Shown here piece after piece: positions 1 to 324 of a stretch of 324 nt of DNA. Location: assembly GCF_003334815.1 (NCBI RefSeq), contig NZ_QOWO01000136.1. One strand, written 5' to 3'. The position numbers and the translations under genes are program-made. The stretch is from Escherichia coli (GTDB lineage Bacteria; Pseudomonadota; Gammaproteobacteria; Enterobacterales; Enterobacteriaceae). Below the pieces are notes generated by a model that had not been told where the DNA came from, ran no database searches, and saw only the letters and a list, made by a program, of their open reading frames with translations. How positions within the stretch are numbered: the stretch's first letter is position 1; each line of letters starts with the position of its first letter.

Positions 1-37
1 CCGTAGGCCGGATAAGGCGTTCACGCCGCATCCGGCA
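1..37 (-). repeat. REP/PU element, Z-type (probably Z2), reverse orientation; copy 1
   Basis: ccgtaggccggataaggcgttcacgccgcatccggca is the reverse complement of the Z-type PU consensus as I remember it (gccggatgcggcgtgaacgccttatccggcctacgg). Imperfect hairpin: arms 7-19 and 24-36, 13 bp with 2 internal mismatches, loop ttca 20-23. GTAG motif at 3-6. Confidence 0.8.
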
Positions 38-50
38 GTCGTGCGCAGAT

Positions 51-86
51 GCCTGATGCGACGCTAACGCGTCTTATCAGGCCTAC
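51..86 (+). repeat. REP/PU element, Y-type, forward orientation; copy 1
   Basis: gcctgatgcgacgctaacgcgtcttatcaggcctac matches the classical E. coli REP (Y) consensus. Imperfect hairpin: arms 51-64 and 69-82, 14 bp with 2 mismatches (one is G·U in RNA), loop 65-68. Ends in CTAC (83-86), the complement of GTAG. Confidence 0.85.
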
Positions 87-101
87 AAATTCCCGCGCCA
101 T

Positions 102-138
102 CCGTAGGCCGGATAAGGCGTTTACGCCGCATCCGGCA
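102..138 (-). repeat. REP/PU element, Z-type, reverse orientation; copy 2 (loop variant ttta)
   Basis: Same as 1-37 except C>T at 123, which lies in the hairpin loop. Confidence 0.8.
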
Positions 139-151
139 GTCGTGCGCAGAT

Positions 152-187
152 GCCTGATGCGACGCTAACGCGTCTTATCAGGCCTAC
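152..187 (+). repeat. REP/PU element, Y-type, forward orientation; copy 2
   Basis: Identical to 51-86. Confidence 0.85.
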
Positions 188-202
188 AAATTCTCGCGCC
201 AC

Positions 203-239
203 CCGTAGGCCGGATAAGGCGTTCACGCCGCATCCGGCA
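203..239 (-). repeat. REP/PU element, Z-type, reverse orientation; copy 3
   Basis: Identical to 1-37. Confidence 0.8.
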
Positions 240-252
240 GTCGTGCGCAGAT

Positions 253-288
253 GCCTGATGCGACGCTAACGCGTCTTATCAGGCCTAC
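253..288 (+). repeat. REP/PU element, Y-type, forward orientation; copy 3
   Basis: Identical to 51-86. Confidence 0.85.
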
Positions 289-303
289 AAATTCCCGCGC
301 CAT

Positions 304-324
304 CCGTAGGCCGGATAAGGCGTT
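304..324 (-). repeat. REP/PU element, Z-type, reverse orientation; copy 4, truncated by the window edge
   Basis: ccgtaggccggataaggcgtt matches the first 21 nt of the Z-type PU in copies 1-3; the window ends before the loop and second arm. Confidence 0.7.

Follow-up and report, generated by a model that had tools for sequence, protein, structure and literature searches.

A BIME-2 tandem array of Escherichia coli corresponding to REP31, with variable unit number between mhpE and mhpT

Background

REP and BIME elements have been under study since the 1980s, and a single-copy enzyme, RAYT (TnpA_REP), acts on REP and REPIN repeats. By definition, a REP, or PU, is 20-40 nt long and forms an imperfect palindrome that contains an internal mismatch and carries the conserved tetranucleotide GTAG at the 5' foot (PMC3333891). 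BIME-1 elements occur singly and not as tandem arrays, the copy number of BIME-2 elements differs between strains, and RAYT cleaves and recombines BIMEs in vitro (PMC3333891). In K-12, rayT is located at 247637-248134 (10.64898/2026.03.23.713779, supplementary table).

The closest described array is REP325 (naRNA1-6), which lies between yjdM and yjdN and is made up of 12 alternating Z2 and Y PUs (Harris et al., 10.64898/2026.03.23.713779). It gives rise to a ladder of RNAs with hairpin ends, and its deletion lowers the mRNA of the upstream gene yjdM and raises downstream yjdN approximately 8-10-fold. Bicyclomycin roughly doubles read-through of REP325, and the attenuation is partly Rho-dependent. 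The same preprint (10.64898/2026.03.23.713779) reports that gene pairs in tandem with a REP between them favour the upstream gene genome-wide, and that REP effects depend on context. In the REP literature, such effects are reported to be absent in some cases: a general effect on mRNA half-life was not seen, and some reporter constructs showed no stabilisation.

Here we analyse a stretch of 324 nt of E. coli DNA, which we call the window. A preliminary description, made from the letters alone, had identified it as REP (PU) hairpins in a BIME arrangement. This identification was right, and the type can now be given as BIME-2: the window is part of a BIME-2 array that matches REP31, an element already known and named.

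Results and discussion

Structure of the window

TRF reported a single array over positions 1-324, with a period of 101, 3.2 copies, 97% matches, no indels and a score of 627. A repeat search of the window, which has a GC content of 61%, returned three 122-nt copies that are 98-100% identical and spaced 101 nt apart. Each 101-nt unit consists of a 34-nt Z2 PU, a 14-nt linker, a 36-nt Y PU in the opposite orientation and a 17-nt linker, which reads AAATTCYCGCGCCAYCC as given for the repeat unit. The motif GTAGG is found on the + strand at positions 3, 104, 205 and 306, and its complement at 82, 183 and 284. The window thus holds seven PUs of 34-36 nt, the last of them incomplete, each with a mismatch bulge (Table 1).

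The Z2 PU of unit 2 is identical to the Z2 PU of REP325, and copy a in the window differs from it in the loop only. The assignment to Z2 and not to Z1 is based on this identity to the REP325 PUs, not on scoring against a published consensus. We did not assign the classical linker names (S, s, l, r and 'U'), because they are used inconsistently between the two source papers.

Table 1. Features of the 324-nt window. Energies are for single hairpins folded as RNA
Feature	Position	Strand	Remarks
BIME-2 tandem array, internal slice, 3.2 x 101 nt	1-324	.	corresponds to REP31, mhpE-mhpT intergenic
Z2-type PU copy a; GTAG foot 5' on +; hairpin 7-36	3-36	+	-20.9 / -21.3 kcal/mol RNA
Head-to-head linker AGTCGTGCGCAGAT, 14 nt	37-50	.	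unlike 13-nt REP325 linker
Y-type PU copy a; hairpin 51-82; CTAC 83-86 on +, hence GTAG foot on -	51-86	-	-21.4 / -21.9 kcal/mol
Tail-to-tail linker AAATTCCCGCGCCATCC, 17 nt	87-103	.	near REP325 linker AAATTCCCGCACCCTCC
Z2-type PU copy b, loop variant TTTA	104-137	+	z = -5.2
Head-to-head linker copy b	138-151	.	
Y-type PU copy b	152-187	-	z = -6.9
Tail-to-tail linker, variant AAATTCTCGCGCCACCC	188-204	.	
Z2-type PU copy c	205-238	+	inverted-repeat search and folding
Head-to-head linker copy c	239-252	.	
Y-type PU copy c	253-288	-	inverted-repeat search and folding
Tail-to-tail linker copy c	289-305	.	
Fourth Z2-type PU, first 19 nt, rest cut by window end	306-324	+	partial naRNA4 match 309-324
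Rfam RF02564 (naRNA4) match = Z2 + Y doublet	6-83, likewise 107-184 and 208-285	+	same intervals above threshold on -

Classification of the repeat

The sequence is both repeated and extragenic. A megablast search against 5,426 complete E. coli genomes found related sequence in every one of them, with a median of at least 31 places per genome, and the best-matching locus is intergenic. Z2 and Y PUs alternate in orientation, they are joined by linkers of 14 and 17 nt, and the unit is present in 3.2 copies in the window and in as many as 7 full units at the locus. We searched the window for the IHF consensus, allowing one mismatch, and found no match; there is no long L linker either. PMC3333891 describes BIME-2 as tandemly repeated Z2 and Y units with short linkers and no IHF site; we place the array in that class on these grounds, and BIME-1 was rejected for want of the IHF consensus and the long L linker. 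A CRISPR array was also rejected, since the repeats alternate in orientation and the would-be spacers are two constant linkers.

The Rfam model RF02564 (naRNA4) matched three times on each strand, with 85-87 bits on + and 62-63 bits on -, where the gathering score is 59.5. Because the PUs are palindromic, the model scores on the - strand as well. The model itself derives from a REP325 doublet. Matches of this kind mark any Z2-Y doublet of a BIME-2 element, on either strand, and are not evidence of a nucleoid RNA gene. For other Rfam families, the window yielded only sub-threshold miRNA and P17 noise.

Secondary structure

The preliminary description credited each unit with two GC-rich hairpins of 13-14 bp. 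There are indeed two per unit, in the form of imperfect palindromes with 14-nt arms that are 86% complementary and loops of 2-4 nt, but 13-14 is the length of the arms; PUs folded alone have 11-13 base pairs and an internal mismatch. As RNA, the hairpin of a single PU has an energy of -20.9 to -21.9 kcal/mol on both strands (z = -5.1 to -6.9 against shuffled sequences), and as DNA approximately -11 to -13 kcal/mol. Folding each strand had been suggested as a check on whether the predicted stability is negligible, and it is far from that: z for the window as a whole is -9.1 (+ strand) and -11.6 (- strand), and 0 of 100 shuffles were equally stable.

Adjacent Z and Y PUs were further said to be inverted and roughly complementary, with longer pairings between PUs possible, and both points are borne out by the sequence and the folding. 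The tails of Z2 and Y are mutually complementary over 17 nt at 88%, and the unconstrained minimum-energy fold pairs Y with Z2. On the - strand, folding gives -160 kcal/mol when only local hairpins are allowed, -184 kcal/mol with a pairing span of at most 110 nt and -199.8 kcal/mol when unconstrained. Since the long Y:Z2 pairings beat the local hairpins thermodynamically, the actual structure of the RNA is uncertain.

No U-tract follows the hairpins in the window, where the longest run of T is 3 on either strand, and a search of the window for terminator-like and sigma-70 promoter-like sites found none. The hairpins are therefore not classical intrinsic terminators, just as had been proposed, and this class was rejected for the window because no site combines a hairpin with a U-tract.

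Genomic locus

The best megablast matches were 99.7% identical, and all were located between mhpE and mhpT. The + strand of the window is antisense to both genes, and the mhpABCDFE transcript corresponds to the - strand. In MG1655 the intergenic region spans 374882-375458. REP31 is placed at 374931-375366, and mhpE/mhpT is classed as a tandem pair (Harris et al., 10.64898/2026.03.23.713779, supplementary table). A preprint on the mobilome names the array REP31a-g, after EcoCyc (10.1101/2024.07.17.603846). The array starts 49 nt past the stop codon of mhpE and ends 92 nt short of the start codon of mhpT. With its first PU 49 nt past the stop codon, it is too distant to count among the REPs that affect translation from within 15 nt of a stop codon, and REP31 is absent from the within-15-nt list of the mobilome preprint (10.1101/2024.07.17.603846).

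REP31 of MG1655 shares its locus, its 101-nt unit, its PUs and its linkers with the window, and the MG1655 units are exactly units 2 and 3 of the window. The MG1655 array has 4 units and a terminal Z2 PU, and its first unit, on the mhpT side, is degenerate and 99 nt long. The window has a C-type unit before a T-type unit, an order that MG1655 lacks, and requires a longer allele. The 7-unit allele of strain DLI.5a differs from the window by 1 nt; we found no exact match to the window among the 5,426 complete genomes.

A search of the MG1655 mhpE-mhpT intergenic region for promoter-like (sigma-70) sites found none, so mhpT may rely on read-through from upstream. Within the literature searched, nothing was found on mhpT transcription and REPs.

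A NusG-dependent in vitro Rho-binding site lies at 375401-375492 of MG1655 on the minus strand, antisense to the 5' end of mhpT (10.64898/2026.03.23.713779, supplementary table). It is 35 nt from REP31, just upstream of the array for transcripts of the window + strand, and its position suggests that the array may also help halt antisense transcripts. Separately, REP31a-g is among eight REP arrays with raised coverage of exonuclease-resistant DNA after SDS or copper stress; the authors propose protection by a protein, RAYT (10.1101/2024.07.17.603846). Alternatively, the inverted repeats may have snapped back on themselves after alkaline lysis.

Variation among strains

For a sample of strains, we searched with a query made of the genes on either side and took 58 genomes spread down the ranking. 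In half of them (29 of 58) the intergenic region is approximately 175 nt long. Regions of approximately 275 nt (also 274) and approximately 376 nt (also 375) were found in 5 genomes each, approximately 477 nt in 3, and 577 nt in 15; one genome, in which mhpT carries an IS1 insertion, has 952 nt. Among the best matches to the window there were also alleles of 678 and 880 nt. The series 175, 274, 375, 477, 577, 678 and 880 nt proceeds in steps of 101 nt and corresponds to 0 to 7 full units: the shortest allele is a single Z2 PU, and one 101-nt unit is added per step.

We compared 25 full units from nine strains. Substitutions are mostly in loops and linkers. Units inside the array hardly differ from one another, and those at its edges are degenerate. 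Internal homogeneity combined with decay at the edges is the pattern expected of an array evolving by unequal exchange. Variation by whole units is directly visible in the alleles; the process behind it would most simply be unequal recombination or slippage, possibly with RAYT-mediated processing.

Laboratory strains add to this series. MG1655 (extracted locus 1383-1959), JM83 and J53 have 577 nt and 4 units. XL10-Gold, a K-12 derivative (extracted locus 2811-3488), has 678 nt and 5 units, of which the four internal ones are identical. Its extra unit is either a recent one-unit expansion and homogenisation in the laboratory lineage or an artefact of assembly. DH10B (extracted locus 1459-1500) has neither mhpE nor any of REP31; instead, mhpT is preceded, 42 nt upstream, by a truncated DUF1116 gene, joined at what is presumably the endpoint of the lacX74 deletion. 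DH10B is in effect a natural deletion of REP31. With a single PU in 29 of the 58 strains and the array gone in DH10B, a large array is dispensable. In strain E7476 (NZ_CP035817.1 4010908-4013859), an IS1A is annotated within mhpT and adjoins a short-allele intergenic region.

At the edge next to mhpT, all alleles carry GACTGCC-TAC-GGGCGAAAT-GTAGG; in SE11 it stands approximately 17 nt before the single Z2 PU, and in the XL10-Gold extract at approximately 2885-2910. From its letters, this element looks like a PU without its interior, which would have been removed between GCC and TAC, and a tail-to-tail linker in shortened form comes after it. The RAYT cleavage contexts TGCC/TGAT and GGCC/TAC (CC/T) are present in the window, and the TGCC/TAC junction could be the product of joining the RAYT sites TGCC/T... 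and GGCC/TAC; a deletion between short direct repeats is equally possible.

Outside E. coli, Escherichia sp. E1V33 has arrays both downstream of mhpE and between yjdM and yjdN. Its draft contig stops inside the array downstream of mhpE (extracted locus 11040-11147). Because breaks in assembly are typical at tandem repeats, unit counts from draft genomes are unreliable. A search of approximately 100,000 species representatives with the exact pattern of the tail-to-tail linker matched one other Escherichia species and no further species. The pattern is strict, and missed even the E. coli representative, so what it shows is that this linker is lineage-restricted, a result that does not extend to BIME-2 in general. 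The data in part show a lineage-restricted repeat of the REP/REPIN class.

This variation bears on whether the array does anything at all at this locus. It might be a neutral or selfish repeat, a by-product of REP/REPIN amplification and unequal recombination that is tolerated in a non-essential stretch between genes and does nothing specific to this locus. Such a reading is plausible, given that the array is polymorphic in presence and absence and that DH10B has lost it completely. The range from 0 to 7 full units, the single PU in half of the sampled genomes and the difference of one unit between MG1655 and the K-12 derivative XL10-Gold all point the same way, as do the homogenised interior and decayed edges, which concerted evolution would be expected to produce, and the recombination of BIMEs by RAYT in vitro (PMC3333891). 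However, REP325 measurably affects its flanking genes (10.64898/2026.03.23.713779), the genome-wide bias of REP-separated tandem pairs is towards the upstream gene, another Escherichia species also has an array at this locus, and a transcribed series of hairpins of -21 kcal/mol must affect RNA decay somehow. We therefore consider a purely neutral array a possibility to be kept in mind, and not the one we favour.

Small proteins encoded by the array, for which the 39-aa ORFs at 49-168 and 150-269 (+ strand) would be candidates, were also considered. The window does contain seven ORFs of 22-39 aa, and in several genomes, for example that of strain YZ22PE67 (extracted locus 688-981), the array bears a PGAP annotation of a 'hypothetical protein'. 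However, both strands have such ORFs, which mirror the palindromes; the PGAP feature carries flags for a frameshift, incompleteness and pseudogene status, and whole units are gained and lost between strains. Since 101 is not divisible by 3, the reading frame shifts with every unit. We rejected coding potential on these grounds and see practically no chance that it is real; ORFs called within such arrays are artefacts of translating REP palindromes.

Possible functions

REP31 is laid out as REP325 is, and no promoter-like site was found before mhpT; for these reasons, we think an element of the 3' untranslated region is the best reading. By analogy with REP325, its local role would most likely be that of a stabiliser of upstream mRNA and a partly Rho-dependent attenuator. 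As the mhpABCDFE transcript enters the array, each PU would fold during transcription, forming a hairpin of about -21 kcal/mol. This series of hairpins would block 3'-to-5' exonucleases, so that mhpE-proximal mRNA would be protected, and the untranslated, structured stretch would cut read-through into mhpT, partly via Rho. The outcome would be a high ratio of enzyme to transporter. At the DNA level, the Y PUs are probable sites of gyrase cleavage. For the explanation as a whole, comprising the identity with BIME-2 array REP31, an origin as a REP-class repeat, an exonuclease barrier with partial attenuation and probable gyrase sites, we estimate a probability of roughly 0.7.

Two considerations bear on how far this goes. 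The preliminary description invoked the known protection of upstream mRNA by transcribed REPs; that holds for the REP family and for REP325, which stabilises upstream yjdM, and at mhpE-mhpT it would apply by analogy. In addition, it is not obviously beneficial to attenuate the gene of a transporter that belongs to the same pathway, which counts against the mechanism. The mhp operon is not induced in standard media.

If the array does act on mRNA, its unit number could conceivably serve as a heritable, fast-mutating dial for mhpE mRNA stability and mhpT read-through, and its antisense strand, just downstream of the in vitro Rho-binding site, could yield naRNA4-like RNAs. We regard this extension as speculative and rather unlikely. 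Were it true, it would mean strain-specific tuning of 3-hydroxyphenylpropionate catabolism with no change in coding sequence or promoter. The natural allelic series of 0-7 units can be used to test the terminator-plus-stabiliser model at a second locus. The array matters little as a discovery, and whether the unit series tunes mhpE/mhpT is the one thread worth following.

A different view is that REP31 works mainly in the DNA: located downstream of the mhp operon, it would be a topological buffer or a strong gyrase site independent of transcription, and it would bind DNA polymerase I as well. BIME-2 elements are enriched in gyrase cleavage sites, which occur more in Y PUs than in Z2 PUs and rise when transcription is blocked (PMC6379681). 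There are three complete Y PUs in the window, and cruciforms could extrude from its DNA hairpins, whose energies are -11 to -13 kcal/mol. The statement in the preliminary description that BIMEs bind gyrase has support at the level of the family (PMC6379681) and would apply to REP31 by analogy. In vivo, however, cleavage is limited to a subset of BIME-2 elements, and the raw cleavage table of the same study (PMC6379681) has at most one single-replicate site in the mhpE-mhpT region, a count to be read with an uncertain coordinate frame and with the ambiguous mapping of reads from tandem repeats. A role in DNA is moreover compatible with a role in RNA. As the primary function, it strikes us as a doubtful though reasonable candidate, and we retain the 3' untranslated element as the preferred reading.

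The weakest part of the preliminary description was its proposal of an action at the level of the nucleoid. In the published naRNA4/HU model, which has its own supporting data (PMC4550694), RNAs like naRNA4 that span a Z2-Y doublet bind HU, bridge cruciform REP DNA and condense the chromosome. Every unit of our array scores above the Rfam gathering score for naRNA4 on both strands, and HU binds naRNA4 with a Kd of approximately 32 nM, according to a later preprint (10.64898/2026.03.23.713779). That preprint, which is co-authored by the senior author of the naRNA4/HU model (PMC4550694), contradicts the model: deletion or over-expression of REP325 leaves nucleoid size unchanged, a stable complex of HU, naRNA4 and cruciform does not form, and long-range REP-REP contacts are absent from Hi-C (10.64898/2026.03.23.713779). 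At REP31, naRNA4 scores best on the strand that runs antisense to the operon, and many strains have only one PU. A role of REP31 in nucleoid condensation is unlikely, and as an explanation of the array we consider it quite improbable.

Relationship to other REP elements

BIME-1 elements (RIP or RIB; Y-L-Z1 with an IHF site) resemble the array in having REP PUs in opposite orientations. The window differs from them in that it has no long L linker and no IHF consensus.

REPINs are inverted pairs of REPs with a GTAG foot that are able to form a long doublet hairpin. The same holds for the window, where pairing of Y with Z2 brings the - strand to -184 kcal/mol compared with -160 kcal/mol for local hairpins. 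REP31a-g has been reported among predicted RAYT-associated REPINs (10.1101/2024.07.17.603846). The window is a tandem array of doublets at one locus, whereas a REPIN is a dispersed single element, and the action of RAYT on the array is putative.

The functional data belong to REP325, with which REP31 is compared here by sequence and layout. The two arrays differ in period (100 in REP325 and 101 here) and in their head-to-head linkers, which are unlike. The strand in the sense of naRNA4 is the operon-sense strand in REP325 and is antisense to mhpE and mhpT here, and naRNA4 scores are 95-111 bits in REP325 compared with 85-87 bits in the window. In other respects the correspondence is close: Z2 and Y PUs alternate in both arrays, which share the same Z2 PU and have Y PUs that differ in the loop only, the tail-to-tail linkers are similar, and both are tandem arrays in the 3' untranslated region between two genes on the same strand.
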